A program made the translations under genes and the position numbers. From Bacteroidales bacterium (GTDB lineage: Bacteria > Bacteroidota > Bacteroidia > Bacteroidales > UBA932), in assembly GCA_017439305.1 (NCBI GenBank), contig JAFSJK010000063.1:14367-78366 (forward strand): 64,000 nucleotides of DNA, given 5' to 3'. The stretch's first letter is position 1. The number at the start of each line of letters is the position of its first letter. Shown one piece after another: positions 7,790 to 20,289 of this stretch. The notes under the pieces were generated by a model. It was not told the origin of the DNA. It saw only the letters and a list, made by a program, of their open reading frames with translations, and did no database searches.

Positions 7790-9166
7790 TTATAATTCAA
7801 ACAATTTGTTCCAACCGGTTTCGGCATCCCAGACGCCGTCGTTGGCCAGGGCGATGCTGTATTCGGGGCGGCCCGGCAGCAGCGGGTCCTCCAGGGCCAG
7901 GTACACCGTGCCGTGCTCGGCCGGGAGGTCGAACTGGACGTCCATCTCATGGGCACCAGGCTGCCACTCCCGGGGGTCTTCGCACGGGACGGAGGTGCTG
8001 GTCCCGTTTTTCTCCACGAAAACCAGCAGGGCCGTGCGGGGATTCATCGGAGCGGCGAAACCCTTGTTGGCAAACTTGATCTTGACGGTCATCTTCTTCC
8101 CAACCTCCCGCTTGGCGGGATAGGTGACCTCGTCGAGTACCAGGCGGTAACCCAGCCGGTTCTCGATTTCCTCCATGCAGCCGGAATTATTCCAGCGGTT
8201 CAGGACGGAACTGTTGTAGCCGCTGTTCAGGTAAGTCCAGTGATAATCTTCCATGTCCTTGATGGAAGCGTCACAGGTGCAATAGTTGGACACTTTGCAG
8301 GTCTCCCCGCCCATCAGGGTGTAGCGGGAATCGCGCTTCCAGAAAGTCCGGTCGCCTTTCTCGTTGTCAAAGGTGCCGTAATCGTCGGCCGACGCGCCGA
8401 AACAGTCGTTGTGGCCGCCCAGGCGGGACAGGTCCGACAAGTCATGGGCCGTCTCCGCCGTCAGGGTGTCCTTCATGGAGAGGCCGTACATCCGCATCTT
8501 GAACTGCGGGGTGCGCAGCGCGACCTGGCGGCTGTCCGGCAGGGCTCTCAGCAAGGCGTCCGTCAGGTGCCGGCGGGGATTGTAGTCGGCGTCCGTCTTC
8601 GGGTCCATGATGAAGTTTTCGGTGTAATACCACTCGCCCCAAACGCCTACGAAGCCGGCCTGCAGGACGAAGATTACATCCGCATTTTTCTGAAGGAGCG
8701 GCCGTAACTGGGCCACGTGCCGAAGGACGACCTGCTCTTCAGGGTCCCAGGGCTTGGCACTCTCGCTGTTCTGGTAGGCAAAGCGCAGGACGCATTTGAC
8801 ACCGGCCTCCCGGAGGGCGTCAAACGAAGTCTGGATCATGTCCAGGTAAGCCTGCGAGATGTCCCCTTTCATGAATTCGGTGAGGTAGAAGCCCACGTAC
8901 ATGAGCGTCTTCCCGTCGGCACGCAGCGCCTTGGCGGCCGAAACCCGGACGGGATTCGACGCGCTCTTGATGTCGATGGCGCCACCGTAGAAGCCCCTTT
9001 CCGGATTGACCAGGGGCACAGTGCTTTCCGTATAATGGACGGTCGCCACGTCTCCGTCCACGGTGATCTCACCGTAGTCGGTTTCGACGGGGCCCTTTTC
9101 CTGGCAAGCGAAGCACAGGAAGACAGGGAGGGAAAGCAACTGGATGAAGATGGGGAGTCTCATCAC
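7790..9166 (-). CDS. DUF4874/DUF4832 lipoprotein, putative glycoside hydrolase
   Basis: NPERGFY, QAGFVGVWGEWYY, GGHNDCF, MGGETC, LGYRL...GFAAPMNPR. Confidence 0.8.
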   Translation of the reverse strand: MMRLPIFIQLLSLPVFLCFACQEKGPVETDYGEITVDGDVATVHYTESTVPLVNPERGFYGGAIDIKSASNPVRVSAAKALRADGKTLMYVGFYLTEFMKGDISQAYLDMIQTSFDALREAGVKCVLRFAYQNSESAKPWDPEEQVVLRHVAQLRPLLQKNADVIFVLQAGFVGVWGEWYYTENFIMDPKTDADYNPRRHLTDALLRALPDSRQVALRTPQFKMRMYGLSMKDTLTAETAHDLSDLSRLGGHNDCFGASADDYGTFDNEKGDRTFWKRDSRYTLMGGETCKVSNYCTCDASIKDMEDYHWTYLNSGYNSSVLNRWNNSGCMEEIENRLGYRLVLDEVTYPAKREVGKKMTVKIKFANKGFAAPMNPRTALLVFVEKNGTSTSVPCEDPREWQPGAHEMDVQFDLPAEHGTVYLALEDPLLPGRPEYSIALANDGVWDAETGWNKLFEL

Positions 9167-9175
9167 GACAATGCC

Positions 9176-10579
9176 TTACAGGGTGAAAGTATAGAGCTTG
9201 TTGAAACCGGTGCTCTCGTTCCAGACGTCCTCATTGGCCAGCTGGATGGAGAACAGCGGATTGTCGCGGAGCGTCTCGCAAGGATCCGGCAGGTTCAGCG
9301 ACAGGGTCACTTCGCCGGAAACGCCGTCCGGAAGGGTTACGGTCTGGTCGATGGCGGTTTTCTCGCCCGGCATCCAGTAGCGCGGGTCGGAGTTCAGGCT
9401 CCAGGTCTTCAGCACCTTGCCGCCCTTGTCGGTGAGCACCAGCTCGGCGTCACGCGGATTCTGGACTGCGGCAAAGCCGTCATTGCGGAGGTCAAGCACC
9501 ACGCGGAAGGATTCTCCGGCCTTAGCACCCTTGGTGTATTGGCCCTTTTCCAGGACGAAGCGGTAGCCCAGTCGCTTCTGGATTTCCTCGAAGCAGCCAC
9601 CGGAACGCCAGCGGCCGATGACGCCGGAGTGATAGCTCTGGTTCAGGTAAGTGAAATGGTTGACGGCCATGTCGGCCAGCGCGCCGATGACGGTGGCGTT
9701 GGTGTTGCCTTCCGGCGGCACGCAGAGGCAGTAGTTCGAAAGGCCGCAGGTCTCGCCGCCCATGATGGTGTAGCGGCTTTCGGAACTCCAGTAGGCGCGG
9801 TCGTTCTTTCCGCGGTAGGTGCCCTGGTCATTGCCGCTGGCCAGGTAGCAGTCGTTGTGACCGCCCAGACGGCCCTTGGGATTCGCCTGATGGGCGGTGG
9901 CACGGGTCAGGGTATCGGAGTAGGAATACCCGTAAAGGTCCATTTTGAACTGCGGGGTACGGAGTTCGATCTGCCGGTCGGCAGGGACCGCGTCCAGCAG
10001 GGCGTCCACGATGGCCTTCCGGTTCGGGTCCTTGCTGTCCCCGTAGTTTTCGGTGTAGTACCATTCGCCCCAGCTGCCGATGAAACCGGCCTGGACAACG
10101 AAGATGATGTCGCCGTATTCCTGGATGATGGGTTTGAGCTGGGCGATATGGCGGAGCGCTTGCTCCGGGGTGGCGTCCCAAGGCTTATCCTTTTCGTCGA
10201 AGCCGTTGGAATAGCAGAAGCGGAGGATGCATTTGGCTCCGCCGTCGCGCATGGACGCAAAGTATTTCCGGACGGTTTCCAGATAATCGGCAGGAATGTC
10301 CGAACTGACGAAATCCGTGAGGTGGAACTCCAGGAGGTACAGCGTACGGGCCTGCTTGCGGTTGATGGAGACGTTGTCCTTGGAAATAGGCTTTGCGGAG
10401 GCGTTATGGATTTCCTGGGGCGTGTAAAAACCGCGTTCGGGATTGGGGATGACTTCATCGGAAGCCTTGTATGCAACGGCTTCCATGCCGGCGATCTGGT
10501 CGTCCGGTCCTTTGCCGCAAGCGACGGCCAGCAGCAGGAGCGCCCCGCAGGCGAAAGTGTTTCTAATCATGGGTTTCAC
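9176..10579 (-). CDS. DUF4874/DUF4832 lipoprotein, tandem paralog
   Basis: NPERGFY, QAGFIGSWGEWYY, GGHNDCY, MGGETC, LGYRF...GFAAVQNPR; start may be 10570. Confidence 0.8.
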   Translation of the reverse strand: MKPMIRNTFACGALLLLAVACGKGPDDQIAGMEAVAYKASDEVIPNPERGFYTPQEIHNASAKPISKDNVSINRKQARTLYLLEFHLTDFVSSDIPADYLETVRKYFASMRDGGAKCILRFCYSNGFDEKDKPWDATPEQALRHIAQLKPIIQEYGDIIFVVQAGFIGSWGEWYYTENYGDSKDPNRKAIVDALLDAVPADRQIELRTPQFKMDLYGYSYSDTLTRATAHQANPKGRLGGHNDCYLASGNDQGTYRGKNDRAYWSSESRYTIMGGETCGLSNYCLCVPPEGNTNATVIGALADMAVNHFTYLNQSYHSGVIGRWRSGGCFEEIQKRLGYRFVLEKGQYTKGAKAGESFRVVLDLRNDGFAAVQNPRDAELVLTDKGGKVLKTWSLNSDPRYWMPGEKTAIDQTVTLPDGVSGEVTLSLNLPDPCETLRDNPLFSIQLANEDVWNESTGFNKLYTFTL

Positions 10580-10590
10580 GGATTATGGTT

Positions 10591-10636
10591 AAAAAAGCAT
10601 GGGCGGGAACCCCGGGTTTGCGGAGACCCGCCCATG
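10591..10636 (-). terminator. Intrinsic terminator inside the PUL
   Basis: CATGGGCGGG/CCCGCCCATG stem followed by T6 on the minus strand. Confidence 0.65.
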
Positions 10637-10656
10637 GCTAGGTTAAAGGGATTCGG

Positions 10657-11385
10657 TTACTTCTTCACAGTCTTGACCTGGAGGGAAGGAGCGAGACCGC
10701 CGGGGTTATCGTCGGTGACGTGGGAATTCGGAAGGACGCCCACGGACTCCCAGTCCTGCTGGATGTCGAAGCCGATGGAGAAGTTGTCAGCGAGCTTCTT
10801 CGGCATGAGCTCACGGGCGATCTGGAACTCGTATTTGCCCTCGATGCCAGCGCCGGCGCAGAGACCGTTGAACTCGCCGAGGTCAGTCCAGGCCCAGCCA
10901 GTGCCGTTCGGCTCACCGGTCCACTCGTGCACGCCGGGCTCGTAGGAGCCGACCTTGGCGCCGTCAGGATAGACGAAGCCTTCGAACAGGAGCTCGGAGC
11001 AGGCATCGGAGAACTCGTCACCATAACCGCCGGTGGAAGCATCACCGTCCGTGTTGATGTAGCAGTGGAAAGGAACGTGCTCCACATCGGGCTCGTGGGT
11101 GATCTGGTCCTTGTCCCACTCGAAGTAGACAAACACGTACACCGCGTCGGCATACACCTTCACGACTTTGAGGGCCGTCTTCGTGGCCTCAGGGTCGCAC
11201 TTGGCCTCAGCGACGGAAGTGAGCTTGGCCCAGTCGGAGAAATCGCCGTCCACCTTGATGGGAGCGACATACTCCTCTTCCTTCTTGCCATCATCGTCGT
11301 CCTCGTCGTCATTGGGCTTGTTGCAGGAGACGGAGATCGCGAGGATCGAAGCCGTCATCGCCAGAAAAGAAAGGATCTTTTTCAT
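10657..11385 (-). CDS. Surface lipoprotein, IDGxFxDW family (putative glycan-binding)
   Basis: VSCNKPNDDEDDDD; PIKVDGDFSDW; immediately downstream of susD. Confidence 0.75.
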   Translation of the reverse strand: MKKILSFLAMTASILAISVSCNKPNDDEDDDDGKKEEEYVAPIKVDGDFSDWAKLTSVAEAKCDPEATKTALKVVKVYADAVYVFVYFEWDKDQITHEPDVEHVPFHCYINTDGDASTGGYGDEFSDACSELLFEGFVYPDGAKVGSYEPGVHEWTGEPNGTGWAWTDLGEFNGLCAGAGIEGKYEFQIARELMPKKLADNFSIGFDIQQDWESVGVLPNSHVTDDNPGGLAPSLQVKTVKK

Positions 11386-11436: not shown

Positions 11437-13212
11437 TTAATGTCTGTTCTGCTCGATGCCGCTGGAGTTGATTTCGTCCAGGGGGAGGAGCAGCGCGATG
11501 CGCGGATCGTTCGGCTGGATGATCTCCCAGTCGTGGCAGCCCACGAAGCGACGGTCCAGAGGCAGCTTGTTGCGGAAGGAGTCGAAGGCGCTGTGGCCCT
11601 CGTAGCAGAGCTCGCGACGACGCTCGTCCAGTACGCAGGAGAGGGCGGAATCATAGCCGCGCTCCTTGATGTTGGAGGAGGTCATCAGGGCATCGCCGGT
11701 GAGGCCGGCACGCTTGCGGATGGTGTTCACGTCGTCCAGGGCCTGGCTGTCCTTGCCGGTCTTGGCATAGGCTTCAGCGCGGTTCAGGACCACTTCGCCC
11801 CAACGGAGGAACACCGGCGAAGTCATCATCGGCAGACCGTCCTGATAGCTGAACTTGGAGCAGTAGTAGATCGCATAGCTACCGCCCATGTTGAAGCGGA
11901 CGCCCTTGCCGCGGGTGAAGTTCGGACGGACATAGACGCGGGCCTTGCCGTCGGTCTTGATGCCCGGGAAGCCGGCATCCTCGACATAGTACTCGGTGTA
12001 GGTGTTCACAATGGTGGGTTTGGCCGTGTAAGGCTTGCCCTGGTAGATGAAGGTCACGGAACCGTCGGCCTTCTGGGTGCAGTCAAAGGCGAAGTCGTCG
12101 GAGCAGGAGTTGCTCTTGTCGTCGGACTTGATGGGGAAAACCACCGTCACCTTGTCGGTCGTGGCATAGCCCTGGCCCTTGTACTCCGGCATGCTGAAGT
12201 AAGCGGCGAAACGCTTGTCCTCAGGATAGCGGCGGAAATTATCGATGAGGTTCTCGTTCCAATAGTGCTCACCCCAGCCGTTGCCGTCCTTGATGTACAT
12301 GGAGGCGATGGAAGCCTCGGCGTGCTCGCCGGCCCAGTCGTCGTTCTGGTCCAGGCGGATGCACCAGATGGTCTCCGGACTGTCATAGGTGTGCGTGGGA
12401 TAGTCGGCGAAGTCGTAGCCTGACGTGACGGCGGACGGTGCGTGGGCAAGCAGTTCGTTGCACTGCTCGATGCACTTCTCATTCTCGCCCATGTACAGAT
12501 ACACGCGGGAAAGGAGGGCGGTGGCGGCGTCCAGGCTCACATAAGCCTTGTCGTTGCCCTTGATGCGCTCGCTCTCGCCGTTCGCGAGATACTTCTTGGC
12601 CTCGAGGAGGTCGTTGACGACGGCGTCGTACACCTCACCCACGGTGGCACGCTTGGTGGTGGAGATGTCCAGGTCCTGGCGCAGCACCACGCCCGGGTTG
12701 TCACGGCCCTGCGCATACGGCATCGCGAAGAGGTTCACGAGCTGGAAGTGCAGGAGGGCACGGAAGAAGTAGTTCTCACCGAGCAGATGGTCGCTCAGGG
12801 GCGATGCGCCCGGGACGATGGCGTCGATGTTGGAATTCGCAGCGTTGATGATCTTGTAGCCGATCCACCAGGTGTAGTAGATGTTCTTGTGGGTGGGATC
12901 CTCGCTGTACATGTAGGCCTCGGTGAACGGGTCCTCGGACTTACCGGAAACCGTCACGTTGTTTCCCCGGAGCTCAGCGAGCTGGAAGTAATGGCGGATG
13001 TAGTAGTTTCCGCTCTCACCGCCGCTCTGGCCCTTGTAGGCGATACGATCCTTGAACAGGGTGTAAATGCCATCGGTGGTGTAGACCGCCGAGGAAGGGT
13101 TCTCGGCCAGCTGGGCGGAGGTCATGGAATCCGAAGAATAGAAGTCCATGTTGCAAGACGCCAGGGCGAGGGCCGCAAGTACGATTGTTACGATGGTAAT
13201 TATCTTTTTCAT
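11437..13212 (-). CDS. susD: RagB/SusD family lipoprotein
   Basis: Lipobox LASC; GENYFFRALLHFQLVNLF; RWGEVVLNRAEA; DERRRELCYEGH. Confidence 0.95.
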   Translation of the reverse strand: MKKIITIVTIVLAALALASCNMDFYSSDSMTSAQLAENPSSAVYTTDGIYTLFKDRIAYKGQSGGESGNYYIRHYFQLAELRGNNVTVSGKSEDPFTEAYMYSEDPTHKNIYYTWWIGYKIINAANSNIDAIVPGASPLSDHLLGENYFFRALLHFQLVNLFAMPYAQGRDNPGVVLRQDLDISTTKRATVGEVYDAVVNDLLEAKKYLANGESERIKGNDKAYVSLDAATALLSRVYLYMGENEKCIEQCNELLAHAPSAVTSGYDFADYPTHTYDSPETIWCIRLDQNDDWAGEHAEASIASMYIKDGNGWGEHYWNENLIDNFRRYPEDKRFAAYFSMPEYKGQGYATTDKVTVVFPIKSDDKSNSCSDDFAFDCTQKADGSVTFIYQGKPYTAKPTIVNTYTEYYVEDAGFPGIKTDGKARVYVRPNFTRGKGVRFNMGGSYAIYYCSKFSYQDGLPMMTSPVFLRWGEVVLNRAEAYAKTGKDSQALDDVNTIRKRAGLTGDALMTSSNIKERGYDSALSCVLDERRRELCYEGHSAFDSFRNKLPLDRRFVGCHDWEIIQPNDPRIALLLPLDEINSSGIEQNRH

Positions 13213-13229
13213 AACTCGTGCACGCTTGA

Positions 13230-16200
13230 TTATTTAACGATGCAGACTGCTACGCGGTTGCTTTCCGGAGTTGCGGAAGCGTCGCGGTCGCCGCCCTTGG
13301 AGGAGCAAGAGATCCTGTCAGCGGAGATACCGGCATTCCGAAGCATTTCGGCCACGGTTTCAGCACGTTTCTGGGACAGTTCCCTGTTGATTTCGGAAGT
13401 ACCGGTAGCCGTGTCGGCATAGCCGGTGATTTCGATCTTGGCATCAGGATTGTCCTTGAGGATCTGAGCGATCCGGCCCAGCTTGAAGGCCTCGTCAGGA
13501 CGGATCTCAGCCTTGCCGATGACGAAGAAGAGGTCATCGTTGTAGGTACCATCGAGCGTGGAGGCAGGGACCTTCTTCTCGACGATCTTCTCCACAATCT
13601 TTTCCACGGGAACCTGCTTCTCGACAATCTTTTCGACCACTTTCTCAACCACGGCAGGAGCGACGTTGGAGAAGCTCGCAGGCTGGGCGGCCGGGGCCTT
13701 CTTGGCTCCGCCGAAGGTGATCTCGAGGCCAAGGACTACAGACAGAGGAACAGGATAGTTGCTGGAGTACAGACCGGCGTGGTGATAGGTGTCGCCATCC
13801 AGGCGGACTTCCGGGTCCATGCCGGAGAAACGGGACAGGGTGAAGATATTGTCAGCAGCCGCGTAGACGCGGGCATTGGCGATATTCGCCTTCTGGATGA
13901 GCGTCTTCGGCAGGTTGTAAGCCAGAGTCACGTTACGGAGACGGAAGAAACTGCCGTCCTCCAGGTAACGGGAGGAAGTACCGTTGGAACCATCAGCACG
14001 GGCGGCCACCAGCGCAGGGTGGGTGGCGACGTCGCCTTCCTTCTTCCAGCGCTTCCAGCCGAGGCCGTTCTTGATGGACATCTGGTTGAGGCCGGTGTAG
14101 GCACCGTCGGAGTCCATCTGCTCACGGTTCTTATTGTAGATCTGGTTGCCGAAGACGAAGTTGCCGTTGGCGCTGAGGGTGAAGTTCCAGAAGCGGAGGC
14201 TGGTGTTGATACCGCCGCTGAACATCGGGGAGGCCTTGCCCACCAGTTGCTGGGTGGCTTCGGCGAGCTTGTTGGTCACGGCGGACTTCATCTTGGCCTG
14301 CGTGTTTCCGTTCTCGTCGATGTAGAAGATCGGATTGCCGGACTCGTCCAGGTCGGGAACGAAGGTCTCCCACATCGGAAGACCGTTCTCGCGGTCGACA
14401 CCCAGCCACTTGGGCATGTACCAGGAGTAGACGTCCTCACCCTCGCGGATGACCTGGTTGACGTCACCGCGGTTCATCACGATGTCGGCGTGGCCCGGAA
14501 GCTCGATCACGCGGTTCTGGTTGAGACCCAGGTTGAGACCGATGTTCCAGCCGAAGTTCTTCCGGTTGAAGATGGCGCCGTCCGTGGCGAATTCAACACC
14601 CATGTTACGTACGGTGCCCACGTTGTCCATGACGGCGAAGAAACCGGTGGACGGGGACATCGGGGATTCCAGGAGGATCTTGGTGTTGATGGTGTGATAG
14701 AGGTCGATCGTGAAGTTCCAGTTCTTCAGGAGGGTGGCATCCAGACCGAGGCTGGTCATGTAAGCCTCTTCCCAACCGAGGTTCGGGTTGGCCATGCGCT
14801 CCAGGATGGCGGTCTTGGTGCCGTTGTACTGGCCGCTGAGGGAGAAGGTGTCCTGATAGGAGAAGGCCGGGATGTTGTCGTTACCGGTCTTACCGTAACC
14901 CGCGCGCAGCTTGAGGAAGGTCAGCGGGCTGTTCTTCATGAAATTCTCATTGGAGATAATCCAGGCTGCGGAAGCGCCCGGGAAATAACCGCCGCGATTG
15001 TTGGGACCGAACTTGTAGCTCTCGTCATAGCGGATGGAAGCGGTGAGGATGTACTTGCCCAGGTAGGAATACTGTGCCTGAGCGAGCCAGGCCCAGGAGC
15101 GGGAGTGGTAGTCACGGCCGCTCACGCTGCTCATCACGGTGTTGGAGAGGGAACGCTGGCCGATCGGGAACTGGATACCGGCAGCACCCATGTCGCGGGA
15201 ATAGCCTTCGCCATACTCCCAGCCCACGGTGGCGTTCAAGTCGTGGTCGCCGAAGGTCTTGTGGAACTTCGCGAGGTCGGTCGTGCCCCAGCCGGTCCAT
15301 TCGCCGTCACTGTTCTCGAGGCTGCCGCCGGTACCCATACCGTCATAGGTGCGGGGGTCGACGTAGTACTCGTAGAAGGAGTGGGAAGTGTCGTAGCGGT
15401 TCATGGAGGTGAGGGTGAGCCAGTCGGTCACGACCCAGACGAACTGGAGGTCGCCGGTAAGGCTCTCGCCATGTCCCTTGGAATAGTTGTAACTTTCACT
15501 GTGCAGCACGTTGGAGGGGTTCTGGGTCCACCAAGTACCGCCGCCGTAACCGTCGGAACGGGACTTGCCGTCCATGAAGATGTATTCTCCGGTAGAGTGC
15601 CACTTGCCGTTCTCGTCCTGTTCCATCACATAAGGGACGTCCCAAGGCATGGCATAGTAGGAATATTCCAGGGTACGCCAGGAAGAAGTGCCCTGGTCAT
15701 AGGATTTCGCGTAATTGAGACGCACCGACATGGTCAGACGGTCCGCGAGCGGAACCGACAGGTTCATGCGGGCGGAAGTCTTCTTGAAGTTGGTGTTGAT
15801 GAGGGTACCCTTCTCATTGTAGTGGTCGGCACTCACGAAGTAGTTGACCTTGCCAGCCTTGCCGGAAGCGGAAGCGTAGTAGTCCTGCACCATGCCCAAC
15901 TTGAAGTTGTTGTTCACCCAGTCGAAGTCCTGCTCCAGCAGGCTCTCGGGATAGGTGAGGTCGAACAGGGTCGAGGAGAACATGCCCTTCGCGTAGTTGT
16001 AGAGTTCCTTGGAGTTCATCGGGCGGAAGGTACCCATCAGGGCCTTCTTGATACCGCCGTTGGCCTTGAATTCCACGGTGGTATTGTCGGCCGAGCCGCT
16101 CTTGGTGGTAACCACGATGACACCGCCGGAAGCGGCCGCACCGTAAAGGGCGGTGGCGGAAGCGTCCTTCAGGACGGTGATGGTCTCGATGTCGTTGGGG

Positions 16201-16775
16201 TTGAAGGAACCGCCGGCGACGCCGTCCACCACATAGAGAGGACCCGCGCCTGCGGTGATGGAACCGGTACCGCGGATGCGGATGTCGGCATTGTCACCAG
16301 GCTGGCCGGAGCCGTTCATGACCACGACGCCGGCCACCTTGCCTTGCAGCATGTTACCCACGTCGTTGGAGCTCACGTCACGGAGCTTCTCACCGCTCAT
16401 CGAGACGACGGCACTGGAGAGTTCCGCTTTCTTCTGGGTAGTGTAACCCAGGACCACGACTTCGTCGAGGGCCTCGGTGTCGGGGTTGAGGGCTACGTTG
16501 ATGACAGCACGGCCGTTGATAGCTTCCGTCACGCTGACATAACCCAGGGACGAGAACGTAATCGTGGCGTTCGCAGGCGCCGTAATCACGAACTTACCGT
16601 CGAAATCGGTGATGGTTCCGTTTCCGCCGGAGAGCATGACTCCCGCCCCGATGAGGGGCTGGCCATCCGAGGCGTCCGTAACCTGGCCCGTGACGGTGAC
16701 GTTTTGGGCCGTTGCAGGGATGGCAAGCGCGATGGCGGCCATTACCGCAAGCAGGTAGGAATAGATTTTTCTCAT
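13230..16775 (-). CDS. susC: SusC/RagA TonB-dependent transporter fused to a C-terminal OmpA-like domain
   Basis: IRIRGTGS, PLYVVDG, VLKDASATALYGAAASGGVIVVTTK, FFRLRNVTLAY; barrel ends LGLEITF at aa 1021 (nt 13713); then 160 aa with VEKIVEK linker and ITGYAD..G...N..LS..RA..V. Confidence 0.92.
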   Translation of the reverse strand: MRKIYSYLLAVMAAIALAIPATAQNVTVTGQVTDASDGQPLIGAGVMLSGGNGTITDFDGKFVITAPANATITFSSLGYVSVTEAINGRAVINVALNPDTEALDEVVVLGYTTQKKAELSSAVVSMSGEKLRDVSSNDVGNMLQGKVAGVVVMNGSGQPGDNADIRIRGTGSITAGAGPLYVVDGVAGGSFNPNDIETITVLKDASATALYGAAASGGVIVVTTKSGSADNTTVEFKANGGIKKALMGTFRPMNSKELYNYAKGMFSSTLFDLTYPESLLEQDFDWVNNNFKLGMVQDYYASASGKAGKVNYFVSADHYNEKGTLINTNFKKTSARMNLSVPLADRLTMSVRLNYAKSYDQGTSSWRTLEYSYYAMPWDVPYVMEQDENGKWHSTGEYIFMDGKSRSDGYGGGTWWTQNPSNVLHSESYNYSKGHGESLTGDLQFVWVVTDWLTLTSMNRYDTSHSFYEYYVDPRTYDGMGTGGSLENSDGEWTGWGTTDLAKFHKTFGDHDLNATVGWEYGEGYSRDMGAAGIQFPIGQRSLSNTVMSSVSGRDYHSRSWAWLAQAQYSYLGKYILTASIRYDESYKFGPNNRGGYFPGASAAWIISNENFMKNSPLTFLKLRAGYGKTGNDNIPAFSYQDTFSLSGQYNGTKTAILERMANPNLGWEEAYMTSLGLDATLLKNWNFTIDLYHTINTKILLESPMSPSTGFFAVMDNVGTVRNMGVEFATDGAIFNRKNFGWNIGLNLGLNQNRVIELPGHADIVMNRGDVNQVIREGEDVYSWYMPKWLGVDRENGLPMWETFVPDLDESGNPIFYIDENGNTQAKMKSAVTNKLAEATQQLVGKASPMFSGGINTSLRFWNFTLSANGNFVFGNQIYNKNREQMDSDGAYTGLNQMSIKNGLGWKRWKKEGDVATHPALVAARADGSNGTSSRYLEDGSFFRLRNVTLAYNLPKTLIQKANIANARVYAAADNIFTLSRFSGMDPEVRLDGDTYHHAGLYSSNYPVPLSVVLGLEITFGGAKKAPAAQPASFSNVAPAVVEKVVEKIVEKQVPVEKIVEKIVEKKVPASTLDGTYNDDLFFVIGKAEIRPDEAFKLGRIAQILKDNPDAKIEITGYADTATGTSEINRELSQKRAETVAEMLRNAGISADRISCSSKGGDRDASATPESNRVAVCIVK

Positions 16776-16838: not shown

Positions 16839-18065
16839 CTATAATAAATCATTCAGGCCGATCAGGTTAAAGGCCCGGAAGTACTTGTCCATGTCGCGTT
16901 CGATCCGGCCCAGGACCACCTCTTCCGCGTCGATGCCGACCCGCTTCAGGTTGTCGAACAGGAAGCCGCGGGCGGCCAGGGGTTTCGGCTGCTGCCAGAT
17001 GTAACGGCAGCAGGTGGCGACGATCCAGTCCTGACGCTCCGGGGTAAGTTCGTGGAGATCCTTCCCCTGCTCGTCTTCGTGGAGCCATTTTTCCCAGCGA
17101 TGGGAAGCGTGGACGGCCTCCAGGAGGGTTTCCTTCATCCGGGACGGGACGGCGATACGGCCTTCCGCATCCAGTTTCTTCTCCACTTCCTCCAGTTCGC
17201 AGAGGGCGCGGTACTCACTCATCGTGAATTCGGGACCCACGTTGGCGGCGCCCATGCCGCAGAGAGGATACTCCTCGGGGTTAGCTACATCATCGGTATA
17301 GTGACCCTTGATGTAGCTACCCAGAGGACGTACCTTGGATGTCAGCCGCTTCGCCACTTCACCGTCAAACACCGTCGTGTCCAGGTCGGTGCCCACTTTC
17401 CCGACGATGAAGCAGGGCCATACATCCCCCAAACCAACGTTTACCAACCCTATTTTCAAATCATGGATGAAAGTGTCGAAAGTTGTTTCGTCCGCCAGGC
17501 CGCCGTGGACCTCTTCCGTACCCACCTCGTAGGAGATGGGGGGAAGGCCCTTTTCCTTGCGGAAACGCTCCACATGGTCGATGAGCTCGACGGTGCGGGC
17601 GGCCACCAGATGGATGTCGATGATCTCCCCCTTGGGGACGTTGATGTCCACCGTGGGATCCACGTGGATCAGGTCGTATCCGGCGAGGACGGCCGCCTCG
17701 AAGGACTTCTTCACGCCGTCCATCGCATCTTTCACGGACCATTTCTCCGTACGCTGCCGGTCCTTGAGCCAGGGACCGCCGTGGTCGATGGCGATGATCA
17801 CGGGGCCGGTGAAATGGACGCGTTCGGTCTCGAAACGCACCAGCCGCGTGAACTGCTCCTGGGTCATCCCGGTATAACCGCCGTCGCAGTCTACCTGGTT
17901 GAGGGTGGCCGCGAAGTAGATGGGCGCATTGTTGCGCTTGGCGGCGCGCAGGGAGGCGCGGATGACGGACGGGGAGTTGGGGCAGGCCGCGAAGATTGTG
18001 CGGCGGATGCCCGTCTCACGCTCCAGCTGGTCGATGCGGTGAAGGAGATTCTCAGTTTTTGCCAT
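16839..18065 (-). CDS. kbaZ: KbaZ/GatZ/AgaZ family protein (likely tagatose-6-phosphate 4-epimerase)
   Basis: Start reset to MAKTENLL; ATLNQVDCDGGYTG, DHGGPW, IHVDPT, EVGTEE, KGHYTD, ANVGPEF. Confidence 0.88.
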   Translation of the reverse strand: MAKTENLLHRIDQLERETGIRRTIFAACPNSPSVIRASLRAAKRNNAPIYFAATLNQVDCDGGYTGMTQEQFTRLVRFETERVHFTGPVIIAIDHGGPWLKDRQRTEKWSVKDAMDGVKKSFEAAVLAGYDLIHVDPTVDINVPKGEIIDIHLVAARTVELIDHVERFRKEKGLPPISYEVGTEEVHGGLADETTFDTFIHDLKIGLVNVGLGDVWPCFIVGKVGTDLDTTVFDGEVAKRLTSKVRPLGSYIKGHYTDDVANPEEYPLCGMGAANVGPEFTMSEYRALCELEEVEKKLDAEGRIAVPSRMKETLLEAVHASHRWEKWLHEDEQGKDLHELTPERQDWIVATCCRYIWQQPKPLAARGFLFDNLKRVGIDAEEVVLGRIERDMDKYFRAFNLIGLNDLL

Positions 18066-18069
18066 AGTT

Positions 18070-19194
18070 CTAATTATATAAGGTGACGCCTTCCACCACG
18101 CGGGAAATATTGCCCGAAACGGAAGGGGTGTCGGGGCACAGCCCCGTATCGATCGATTTGAACAGTCCCAGCATCTGGCCCACGAAAGCATAGCTCACGC
18201 AGCCGTAGCAGGGGGGCATGGAAGGCGTGATGCCGGTTTCCACGCAGAGGTCGTAGCTGTCTTCCTCCAGCTCGGGCTTCTCGAAGCAGGCCACCAGGAC
18301 GCCTTTCACGTTATTGTTGGCCTTGACCTGGCGGATGAGGTCCAGTTCATAGCGGCGCACCGCCGGATTCGGGGAGACCAGATACACCAGCAGAGAGTCT
18401 TCCTTCACGACGGCCTTGGGACCGTGGCGGAAGCCCAGGAAGGAGTCGAAGGCGCACATGACGGCGCCGTCGGTGAGTTCCTGGAGCTTGAGGCGGCATT
18501 CCTCGGCCACGCCCTTCAGCGGACCGGAGCCCAGGAAGATGGCGCGCTTGAAATCGCGCGAAGCCAGCCGTTCGATGGCCGGTTCATACTTGTACATGGC
18601 TTTCTCCACGCAGGTCGCCACCTCCTTGATGAGGGGGGCGTCTTCCTCGATGCGGCTGATATTGGCGATCATCGAGCAGCAGAGCAGCATGGTGGAATAG
18701 CTGCTGGTCATCGCCAGGGACAGGTCGTTGGTCTCCGGAGGGAGGAGGATGCAAAGGATGTTGTCCCCCTTGGTCCGGGCCAGCTGGCCGTCCTTGTTGC
18801 AGGTGATGAAGATATGGGCCACCTTACCGGCGGTCTTCTCCACGGCCTTGATGGCGCCCACGCTCTCCGGGCTGTTGCCGGAACGGGCGAACGACACCAG
18901 CAGCACCTTGCTGTCGCTGTCGAAGTACATCTGCGGGTTGGTGATGATATCGGTGGTGGCAATGGCGTGCGCCCCCTTGAAGCCAGTAGAGTACAGGGCC
19001 GGTTCCAAAGCGTCGCCGATGTAGGCCGACGTGCCGGCGCCCGTCAGGATGATCTCATAGCCGTCCCGGAGGTATTTACCCGTGAATTCCTCGATCTCCT
19101 GCTTGTGGGCACGGACATAATCCAGGGTCTTCAACCACATCCTGGGCTGCTGAAGGATCTCCTTGTAAGTGTTATAATCGTGTGTCATCGACAT
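18070..19194 (-). CDS. agaS: AgaS-type SIS-domain galactosamine-6-phosphate deaminase/isomerase
   Basis: EILQQP, ILTGAGTSAYIG, SFARSGNSPES, AMTSSYS, LKLQELT, LGFRHGPK, SRVVEGV; start 19194 or 19188. Confidence 0.9.
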   Translation of the reverse strand: MSMTHDYNTYKEILQQPRMWLKTLDYVRAHKQEIEEFTGKYLRDGYEIILTGAGTSAYIGDALEPALYSTGFKGAHAIATTDIITNPQMYFDSDSKVLLVSFARSGNSPESVGAIKAVEKTAGKVAHIFITCNKDGQLARTKGDNILCILLPPETNDLSLAMTSSYSTMLLCCSMIANISRIEEDAPLIKEVATCVEKAMYKYEPAIERLASRDFKRAIFLGSGPLKGVAEECRLKLQELTDGAVMCAFDSFLGFRHGPKAVVKEDSLLVYLVSPNPAVRRYELDLIRQVKANNNVKGVLVACFEKPELEEDSYDLCVETGITPSMPPCYGCVSYAFVGQMLGLFKSIDTGLCPDTPSVSGNISRVVEGVTLYN

Positions 19195-19208
19195 AGTATC
19201 TAGCTTTG

Positions 19209-19216
19209 CAAATGTA
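19209..19216 (-). promoter_or_regulatory. -7 promoter box (TACATTTG) for the agaS-kbaZ-susCD arm
   Basis: TAnnTTTG match just upstream of agaS. Confidence 0.55.
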
Positions 19217-19234
19217 TAAAACATCCGGCAAAAT

Positions 19235-19351
19235 GTTTCGATTTGTGTTTTGAAATTTTGAATTGAAAAAATCGAAACAGAGCCCGTAATTCTGCAACAA
19301 GCTCTGTTTCAATATATTATGGATATTTTAAAAATGTTTCAGACAGTTTCG
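19235..19351. promoter_or_regulatory. Candidate AgaR operators upstream of agaS
   Basis: GTTTCG 19235, CGAAAC 19273, GTTTCA/GTTTCG at 19336/19346 (10-bp spacing). Confidence 0.5.
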
Positions 19352-19357
19352 ATTATT

Positions 19358-20149
19358 TTATAGGACAACCGTTTCAACATTGATCTTCATCGCCTTGAGC
19401 TGCCGTTTCACATTGGCGGGCAGGTTATTGTCCGTAATGACCGTATGGATTTTCTGGGTTTCGGCGATGAAGGCGAGGGCCCGCTTGTTCACCTTGGAGG
19501 AATCGAAGACGGCAATCACCTCCCGGGCGCGGGAGATCATCACCTGGTTCGTGCTGGCTTCCTCCACGCTGGGGGTGGAGAGGCCGGTCTCCACCGAGAA
19601 ACTGTCCACGCCCAGGAACAGCTTGTCACAGTAGAAAAGCTTCAGGTTGCTCTCCGCCAGCGGCCCCACGATGGAGAGGCTGCTCTCACGCACGGAACCG
19701 CCCAGCAGGATAACCTTGAAACGCTTGTATTTCAATGCTTCCATCATCGCGACGATGGAGTTCGTGATGATCGTGAGATCCTCGAAACGATGCAGGTTCT
19801 TGACCACTTCCAGGGCGGTGGAGCCGGAGTCCACGAGGATGGTGTCCCCGTTCTTGATATGGGCAGCTGCGGCACGGCCAATGGCCTCCTTCTCGCGCGC
19901 GTTTACCAATTTCTTGAAGTTCACGTGCCGCTCCTCCACCTCGTCATTGATAGGGGAAGCTCCGAGGATGGCGCCTCCGTGAACCCGCACCAGCAACTTC
20001 CTTTCCTTCAGGATGCGAAGGTCCTTTCGGATCGTCACTTCCGAAACGCCGAAACGTTTGCTGAGTTCGCTTACATTGACGGAAGAGTCGTCCTTCAGGA
20101 GCTGAAGGATGGCGGAACGGCGGCCCTGGGCTGAATCGTAGATATCCAT
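19358..20149 (-). CDS. agaR: DeoR-family transcriptional regulator (AgaR-like)
   Basis: Start reset to MDIYDSAQGRR; ELSKRFGVSEVTIRKDL HTH; LVDSGST; DKLFLGVD; DSSK. Confidence 0.88.
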   Translation of the reverse strand: MDIYDSAQGRRSAILQLLKDDSSVNVSELSKRFGVSEVTIRKDLRILKERKLLVRVHGGAILGASPINDEVEERHVNFKKLVNAREKEAIGRAAAAHIKNGDTILVDSGSTALEVVKNLHRFEDLTIITNSIVAMMEALKYKRFKVILLGGSVRESSLSIVGPLAESNLKLFYCDKLFLGVDSFSVETGLSTPSVEEASTNQVMISRAREVIAVFDSSKVNKRALAFIAETQKIHTVITDNNLPANVKRQLKAMKINVETVVL

Positions 20150-20171
20150 TGAAATAGCATTAGTGTTGGGG

Positions 20172-20262
20172 CAAAGATAAGGAATATTTTTATACGAAAC
20201 AAAACGAAATACTTTTTTTACCCATAAATCGAAACCAAGTGAAATATTTTCGGTTTTTTTCG
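20172..20262. promoter_or_regulatory. Divergent agaR/pfkB promoter region with phased CGAAA/TTTCG repeats
   Basis: -7 box TATCTTTG (minus, 20172-20179); CGAAAC/CGAAAT 20195/20205; CGAAAC/TGAAAT 20230/20240; TTTCG 20248/20258. Confidence 0.6.
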
Positions 20263-20289
20263 CATCTTTGCAACATAAAACCACATAGC

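Follow-up and report, generated by a model that had tools for sequence, protein, structure and literature searches.

The susC gene on the minus strand of the window, by which we mean the whole 64,000-nucleotide (nt) stretch of contig JAFSJK010000063.1 that was analyzed, encodes a SusC/RagA-type TonB-dependent transporter whose reading frame does not end with the barrel but runs on into an OmpA_C-like peptidoglycan-binding domain. The DNA is from a Bacteroidales bacterium of the rumen that has not been cultured. All coordinates given here are positions within this window, and residue numbers refer to the product of 1181 amino acids (aa). We consider it probable, at roughly 0.7, that the protein is a working SusC importer, that its OmpA_C tail staples the SusCD complex non-covalently to the sacculus, and that the tail belongs to a cassette that has been moved repeatedly between susC genes and was grafted onto this one recently.

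By every sequence test the fusion protein is a member of the SusC/RagA family, except that the polypeptide outlasts the barrel, and the tail is a member of PF00691. The SusC/RagA profile TIGR04056 aligns with residues 27-1021 from model position 2 to 981 (of 981) and scores 738.2 bits (cut-off 368.25), and the SusC signature TIGR04057 matches residues 195-225 with 53.3 bits (cut-off 46.2). The motif DEVVVLGY we take to be the TonB box, an assignment from general knowledge of SusC proteins. The final barrel strand (...LGLEITF) ends at Phe1021 (13713-13715), a residue that is retained by 92% of the tailed homologues. Usually, a SusC polypeptide ends at this barrel-final aromatic residue, whereas here 160 more codons follow in frame. 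They lead through a linker of 57 aa (residues 1022-1078), which is first Gly/Ala/Pro-rich and then built of VVEK/IVEK tetrads, into a domain whose residues 1083-1171 match PF00691 with 65.5 bits against a gathering threshold of 27.2 (E 5.9e-18). A match of this quality within an in-frame extension of 160 codons makes a chance read-through impossible. An earlier note, made from the letters of the window alone, had described a SusC barrel with a normal terminal strand that continues in frame through a Pro/Ala and VEK-repeat linker into a complete OmpA_C domain with its Asp and Arg positions kept (Asp1121 and Arg1137), and had placed susD 17 nt past the stop codon of the tail. All of this was borne out.

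It might be argued that the fusion is an error of assembly or sequencing, by which a stop codon after ...ITF was lost and susC was joined to a separate OmpA gene. The genome is a metagenome-assembled genome (MAG) of 90 contigs and one other tailed gene in it is split over two contigs, which would be in line with such an error. However, Logan contigs from two studies that are independent of the window's assembly span the junction. One of them (2306 nt) covers positions 13502-14200 with ten substitutions and zero indels, and the other (372 nt) covers positions 13408-13779 and is identical to the window. Insertions or deletions were not reported in any Logan run. Furthermore, the tail is preceded by neither a start nor a signal peptide of its own, and a tailed orthologue from a different sample (P0004; 94% barrel identity) has the identical length and the same neighbors. 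The same fusion is present in hundreds of homologues. More than 110 full-length proteins have this architecture. A query with residues 940-1181 retrieved 712 proteins, of which almost all of the 120 best-scoring ones have a length of 1150-1280 aa and combine a CarboxypepD_reg-like N-terminal domain, a Plug domain and OmpA. Thus, the junction-spanning independent contigs together with the homologues rule out a chimera or a lost stop codon, which we regard as next to impossible, and the fusion is genuine, as the earlier note had assumed. It is no one-off case: its tail family is conserved and comprises hundreds of database entries, which are automatically filed under the plain name "SusC/RagA family." The genome to which the window belongs (the host genome) contains 34 SusC genes, 3 of which are tailed. 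What looks like a fourth tailed copy, at the edge of a contig, belongs to the second tailed gene and represents its end: the break between contigs C81 (end) and C12 (start; loci L002/L005) lies inside its tail, and since the two contigs share an overlap of 141 identical nt, they represent one gene and can be joined.

The structure prediction that the earlier note had suggested yielded a barrel, a disordered linker, and a separate OmpA domain. In the AlphaFold (AF2) model of the full-length protein, which has a mean predicted local distance difference test score (pLDDT) of 76, the last barrel strand comprises residues 1010-1022 and a separate β-α-β-α-β-β domain is formed at residues 1077-1180; residues 2-17, within the signal peptide region, are helical with low pLDDT. 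The model is thus consistent with the view that the last strand exits on the periplasmic side. The tail model, with a pLDDT of 71-89 across the OmpA domain, was matched by Foldseek to 9uu2 (TM score 0.81), Pal (0.78-0.81), Acinetobacter baumannii OmpA 3td3 (0.78), and OprF-C 5u1h (0.75; root-mean-square deviation 2.0), and 3td5 of A. baumannii OmpA was also among the fold matches. Among solved structures, the sequence of the tail is most similar to 9uu2 ("Major outer membrane protein," OmpA C-like domain) and to Pal, with whose conserved Asp and Arg the residues Asp1121 and Arg1137 align. Both residues as well as Gly1118, Asn1130, and Cys1178 are invariant in an alignment of 91 full-length homologues, which end in ...NRVAVCIVK. 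In A. baumannii OmpA, this Asp/Arg pair mediates the non-covalent association with peptidoglycan (PMC6572160). The OmpA core has a constant length of 102 aa (101-103) in 115 proteins. The linker contains much Val, Glu, and Lys and, across 176 tailed proteins, measures 55 aa in the median (5-95%: 50-69). As a side observation, Asp1121 is the first residue of an Asp-Thr-Ala tripeptide (13407-13415; Asp-Ser-Ala in the homologue consensus) and thus the contact Asp starts a D-(S/T)-(A/I/L/V/M/T) sequence, which is the general O-glycosylation motif of Bacteroidota. O-glycosylation beside the binding pocket could tune wall binding. In Porphyromonas gingivalis, OmpA-like proteins are major O-glycoproteins (PMC6112661).

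The proposed function combines these features. TonB-dependent barrels have both their N- and their C-terminus in the periplasm, OmpA_C domains attach non-covalently to the peptide stem of peptidoglycan, and two-domain OmpA/OprF proteins show that the β-barrel assembly machinery tolerates an internal β-signal. Judged from its sequence and model, the protein would be a working SusC-type TonB-dependent glycan importer whose last strand exits into the periplasm, from where a flexible linker of ~55 aa would lead to the OmpA_C domain. The latter would bind peptidoglycan non-covalently via the conserved Asp/Arg pocket and would thereby staple the SusCD complex to the sacculus. The cassette, consisting of the end of the last strand, linker, OmpA_C domain, stop codon, and 17-nt spacer, would originate from the periplasmic half of an 8-stranded OmpA and would repeatedly have been transferred from one susC gene to another through recombination at the susC-susD junction. 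The earlier note had named a location near TonB motors, exclusion from vesicles, and a second role as envelope anchor as possibilities. Among the possible consequences, we rank first that energy-dependent importers may be retained or immobilized in the cell-bound outer membrane, because they would be useless in vesicles. Second, the abundant barrels might supply extra tethering between outer membrane and wall. Positioning or bracing of the barrel relative to TonB is ranked lowest, since a flexible linker cannot resist a periplasm-ward pull. A more far-reaching idea, which we put forward only tentatively and hold to be rather doubtful, is that of a mobile wall-anchor cassette that rumen Bacteroidales graft on and off individual susC genes at the susC-susD junction, with strains differing in their sacculus-coupled importers and the coupling mattering for TonB transport and for the choice of importers that remain on the cell instead of being lost in vesicles. 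If true, the coupling could keep the barrel aligned with the peptidoglycan-embedded ExbBD-TonB motor or brace it against the pull, and the tailed proteins would then represent the first class of TonB-dependent transporters to have a dedicated C-terminal periplasmic domain.

Alternatively, it could be that the tail is not a peptidoglycan anchor but an interaction module, which either pairs the tails of a SusC2D2 complex via the VEK repeats and the cysteine or serves as a docking site for another protein of the periplasm, e.g., TonB, a glycosidase, or a sensor. The constrained length of the repeat linker and the invariance of Cys1178 in the 91 sequences would make sense in such a module, and oligomerization is known both for OmpA_C domains and for the OmpA stalks of Bacteroidota; the periplasmic portion of Capnocytophaga gingivalis OmpA (5wtl) is among the fold matches. 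However, the same cysteine is found in plain OmpA proteins, and AF2 predicted neither a helix or coiled coil nor any other secondary structure in the linker (pLDDT <50). In addition, both positions that touch diaminopimelate in OmpA-like domains of known structure are invariant, and the best fold matches are peptidoglycan-bound domains. Overall, we consider an interaction module unlikely.

As judged from the comparison of its relatives, the tail was gained recently by the window gene, onto an otherwise tail-less orthologue, a point that the earlier note had missed. A barrel-only query (residues 230-1021) revealed the tail in only P0004 and one fragment, and the next 100+ barrel clusters, ranging from 91% down to 64% identity and from 980 to 1030 aa, are without PF00691. 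A maximum-likelihood tree calculated for the orthologue group places the tailed pair ~15 nodes down a ladder of tail-less sequences, many branches of which have an SH-aLRT (Shimodaira-Hasegawa-like approximate likelihood ratio test) support of at least 95. With the pair nested in this way, one gain suffices, whereas an ancestral presence of the tail needs more than 10 losses. For this reason, a single ancient and vertically inherited fusion was rejected for the window gene. The tail-less orthologues end in ...LGLDVKF and a stop codon, after which an unrelated spacer follows; the tailed P0004 reads ...LGLDV-TLGG..., and the nearest other tail, that of P0005, follows ...VEVTLGKAK. From the comparison of these junctions, the left crossover seems to fall within the last two or three barrel codons, and the right crossover at the susD start. 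In one bovine gut metagenome (run X9), tailed and tail-less alleles of the window susC are both present. A contig of this run follows the window as far as nt 13741, which lies in the last barrel strand, and then reads ...GIDVKF followed by a stop codon (region 13738-13803). At the tail-less orthologue locus L089 (86%), susC is followed after 14 nt by susD, a 246-aa gene, and a DUF4874/DUF4832 gene. The downstream part of the polysaccharide utilization locus (PUL) is syntenic in L089 and in the tailed locus L091, and since the tail-less locus has the same downstream genes, the tail is independent of the substrate.

The cassette seems to have spread far beyond this gene. Among the tailed proteins, the OmpA cores are ~72% identical and the barrels ~31%. 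In a tree of 209 barrels, which comprises the tailed proteins, the tail-less orthologues, and the SusC set of the host genome, at least 20 changes of tail state were counted compared to a mean of 69 for shuffled labels, and the tailed clades interleave with tail-less paralogues of the host genome. Some of the tail-less SusC proteins of the host genome have barrel ends that match subfamilies tailed in other genomes. The spacer behind the tail follows the pattern TCAAG, seven variable bases, CGAGTT, and ATG. The same pattern was detected after the tails of unrelated susC genes, namely the one split over C81 and C12 and those at the loci L049 and L016. The tail-less orthologues have different spacers, and none of the 31 tail-less susC genes of the host genome is followed by this pattern. 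From these patterns we infer that the moving unit begins at the end of the last strand, includes the spacer, and was spread by recombination between susC-susD junctions. Apart from this, a tail-rich genome (G152) harbors two tailed susC genes (C49:86798-87304 and C62:4582-5088) with identical scores and identical frame lengths of 1179 aa, which points to a duplication that took place very recently or to a contig that is present twice in the MAG.

Regarding the origin of the tail, a plain OmpA of 362 aa from a related genome (L092) is 46% identical to it and ends in ...ENRVAVCLVK. The passage from barrel to linker in this protein (...SFGKAK-PAPAP...VVEK) closely resembles that of the fusion (...ITFGGAKK-APAA...VVEK). 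The tail thus probably stems from the periplasmic half of the 8-stranded OmpA of this same family, which agrees with the earlier note's statement that linker and domain are built as in Bacteroidales OmpA proteins. The nearest tail found is that of P0005 with 76% identity over the last 200 aa. A donor inside the same genome is unlikely, because the other two tails there are just 53-61% identical. The GC content at third codon positions (GC3) is 0.706 in the tail (0.68 in the OmpA core) and is lower there than in any of the 87 sliding windows of 160 codons along the barrel (minimum 0.762) or in any susD window (minimum 0.812). This deviation fits a foreign origin and is at odds with the uniform codon style that the note had reported.

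The distribution was analyzed with tail patterns that are specific to the window's tail type in one genome per GTDB species. All matches (105 of 105) were from ruminant-gut "Bacteroidales bacterium" MAGs. In tail-rich genomes, 8 of 36, 7 of 20, and 6 of 17 SusC genes are tailed (22-35%), and a Pfam scan suggests a ninth tailed gene in the first of these. The idea that the tails compensate for a lost OmpA/Pal was rejected, as the tail-rich genomes keep OmpA-domain open reading frames (ORFs) of 233-499 aa. Within the same family, 1 of 150 other genomes contained a tailed SusC, the second match being a plain OmpA of 466 aa. A genome shared between the two family samples places at least one tail-rich genome in the host's GTDB family. 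Tailed SusC proteins were found in none of 400 order-level and none of 400 phylum-level sampled genomes, whereby the E-value cuts would miss very divergent tails and such samples are not a proof of absence.

Between the window gene and that of L091, the barrel has a synonymous divergence (dS) of 0.33 and a ratio of non-synonymous to synonymous divergence (dN/dS) of 0.09, and the tail has a dS of 0.64 and a dN/dS of 0.17. These ratios place the tail under purifying selection, somewhat less than the barrel. Among 80 GTDB loci, no truncated or frameshifted tail was seen, and the tails are full-length in the parsed ORFs, with exceptions due to contig ends and the choice of the first ATG as start. 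The next ORF of the parsed tailed genes in these loci lies within ~30 nt and is SusD-sized (455-693 aa) where the locus permits. The intactness of these tails, the dN/dS of 0.17, the constant core length, the conservation of ~72% in tails on barrels that have diverged to ~31%, and the retention of 6-9 tailed SusC genes in single genomes all argue against a recent and nearly neutral recombination accident, in which the cassette would hitch-hike on susC, leave transport unaffected, and head for loss. Such an accident would account for the recent gain, the highly patchy spread, the abundance of tail-less orthologues, the deviant GC3, the faster divergence of the tail than of the barrel between two orthologues, and the full set of ordinary OmpA-domain proteins that tail-rich genomes retain; in view of both sides, we hold it to be quite improbable.

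Several observations nevertheless weigh against the reading of the protein as a wall-stapled importer. Architecture, fold, and pocket residues are observed, and it is from these that we infer peptidoglycan binding by the tail and its consequence. None of the 8 other species of the same genus has a tailed SusC, and in the tail-rich genus ~5 of 61 species have one. A trait that is so rare and patchy is dispensable. Since its acquisition the tail has changed faster than the barrel, with 81% vs. 95% aa identity and the dN/dS difference given above. The linker is disordered in the AlphaFold model (residues 1024-1071, pLDDT <50). Contigs from RNA runs matched short conserved pieces only and did not span the junction. 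Bacteroides thetaiotaomicron SusC with a C-terminal 3xFlag was found mostly in the outer membrane fraction, and other SusC-like proteins of this species occur in both outer membrane and vesicles (PMC6222051). On the one hand, this speaks for our reading, as an extension at the C-terminus is tolerated. On the other hand, the rationale of vesicle exclusion is weakened, since a canonical tail-less SusC is already mostly in the outer membrane.

With canonical SusC/RagA proteins, e.g., SusC of B. thetaiotaomicron, the fusion shares the full-length model match, the signature, the N-terminal domain, the plug, the DEVVV-type motif, the barrel-final aromatic residue, and a susD gene immediately downstream inside a PUL. 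However, the canonical proteins as well as the fusion's own 65-91% orthologues stop at the final Phe, and the fusion adds 160 aa. With OmpA/OprF porins, including the 8-stranded OmpA of Bacteroidales, it has in common the layout of barrel, flexible or repeat linker, and OmpA_C domain, and thus an internal β-signal. The plain Bacteroidales OmpA proteins L004, L006, and L092 (362-390 aa) show 35-46% identity to the tail, a D-x-x-T-G loop variant, and the ...NRV.VC..K end. In contrast to these porins, the membrane part of the fusion is not a small N-terminal 8-strand barrel but a SusC of ~1000 aa, i.e., a 22-strand, plugged, and TonB-energized importer with a SusD lid. By analogy, the fusion may be regarded as an OmpA/OprF-type two-domain protein whose barrel is a transporter. 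Pal, YiaD, and YfiB have the same peptidoglycan-binding fold with the Asp/Arg pocket, and the presumed role as a staple between outer membrane and wall is common to all of them. They are, however, anchored by a lipid, and Pal works with Tol, whereas no TolB binding is implied for the fusion. PorE of the type IX secretion system is likewise an outer membrane-associated part of a Bacteroidota machine with a C-terminal OmpA_C domain, which ties it to peptidoglycan, and the structure 6top is among the fold matches. PorE is a lipoprotein with tetratricopeptide repeats and a β-propeller but without a transporter barrel, and the partial match of the fusion to NF052230 reaches 55 bits, far below the cut-off of 600. 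A description of a fusion between SusC or a TonB receptor and OmpA was not found in a full-text literature search, which is in accordance with the earlier note, whose author knew of no characterized example. To our knowledge and in the literature searched, wherever additional domains of TonB-dependent transporters have been described, they sit at the N-terminus, and reviews on Bacteroidetes transporters discuss N-terminal additions only.

A conserved and selected C-terminal domain that binds peptidoglycan would be a new design element for TonB-dependent transporters. It could offer a handle on the questions whether lateral mobility or wall coupling of SusCD has a bearing on TonB energization, how importers stay out of outer membrane vesicles, and what share abundant barrels have in the tethering of outer membrane and wall. 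The natural pairs of tailed and tail-less orthologues, with 86-91% barrel identity and in the same PUL, are ready-made controls, and the cassette is small enough for grafting onto SusC of B. thetaiotaomicron. With one cassette on many barrels and at least 20 state changes, the family also illustrates neatly how a domain can be shuffled among paralogous PULs.

The features of the locus are compiled in Table 1.

Table 1. Features of the susC-ompA gene and its neighborhood in the window.
Feature	Position	Strand	Basis or remark
susC-ompA fusion gene, 1181 aa + stop	13230..16775	-	ORF call, profile matches
Signal peptide, residues 1-23, end ...PATA/Q	16707..16775	-	Sequence reading; putative cleavage site
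CarboxypepD_reg-like N-terminal domain, residues 28-108	16452..16694	-	PF13715 (CarbopepD_reg_2), E 1e-13
TonB-box-like motif DEVVVLGY, residues 104-111	16443..16466	-	Sequence reading
Plug domain, residues 116-219	16119..16430	-	PF07715, E 1.5e-15
22-strand SusC barrel to final strand PLSVVLGLEITF, residues 220-1021	13713..16118	-	TIGR04056, AF2
Linker part 1, Gly/Ala/Pro/Ser-rich, low complexity, residues 1022-1041	13653..13712	-	pLDDT <50
Linker part 2, (V/I)(V/I)EK tetrads around central VPVE, residues 1042-1070	13566..13652	-	
OmpA_C-like peptidoglycan-binding domain, residues 1079-1181	13233..13541	-	PF00691, fold, PDB matches
Codon of Asp1121	13413-13415	-	
Codon of Arg1137	13365-13367	-	
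Codon of Cys1178	13242-13244	-	
Stop codon of fusion gene	13230-13232	-	
Spacer from tail stop to susD, 17 nt, TCAAG...CGAGTT	13213..13229	-	Probably part of grafted cassette
susD partner, 591-aa lipoprotein, ATG at 13212	11437..13212	-	PF07980 (SusD_RagB), PF14322 (SusD-like_3)
DeoR, SIS (AgaS-like), and GatZ/KbaZ-like genes, upstream	16839-20284	-	
242-aa protein and two tandem DUF4874/DUF4832 proteins, downstream	7790-11385	-	242-aa protein: no Pfam match

The PUL is encoded on the minus strand in the order DeoR regulator, SIS protein (AgaS-like), GatZ/KbaZ-like protein, susC-ompA, susD, 242-aa protein, and two DUF4874/DUF4832 proteins. In addition to the tailed genes, a SusC gene with a long open frame (1250-1301 aa) was noticed at G000:C10:9022-12309 (minus strand), whose excess is N-terminal and which has no OmpA tail. 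Its extra length may be due to an upstream open frame before the true start.

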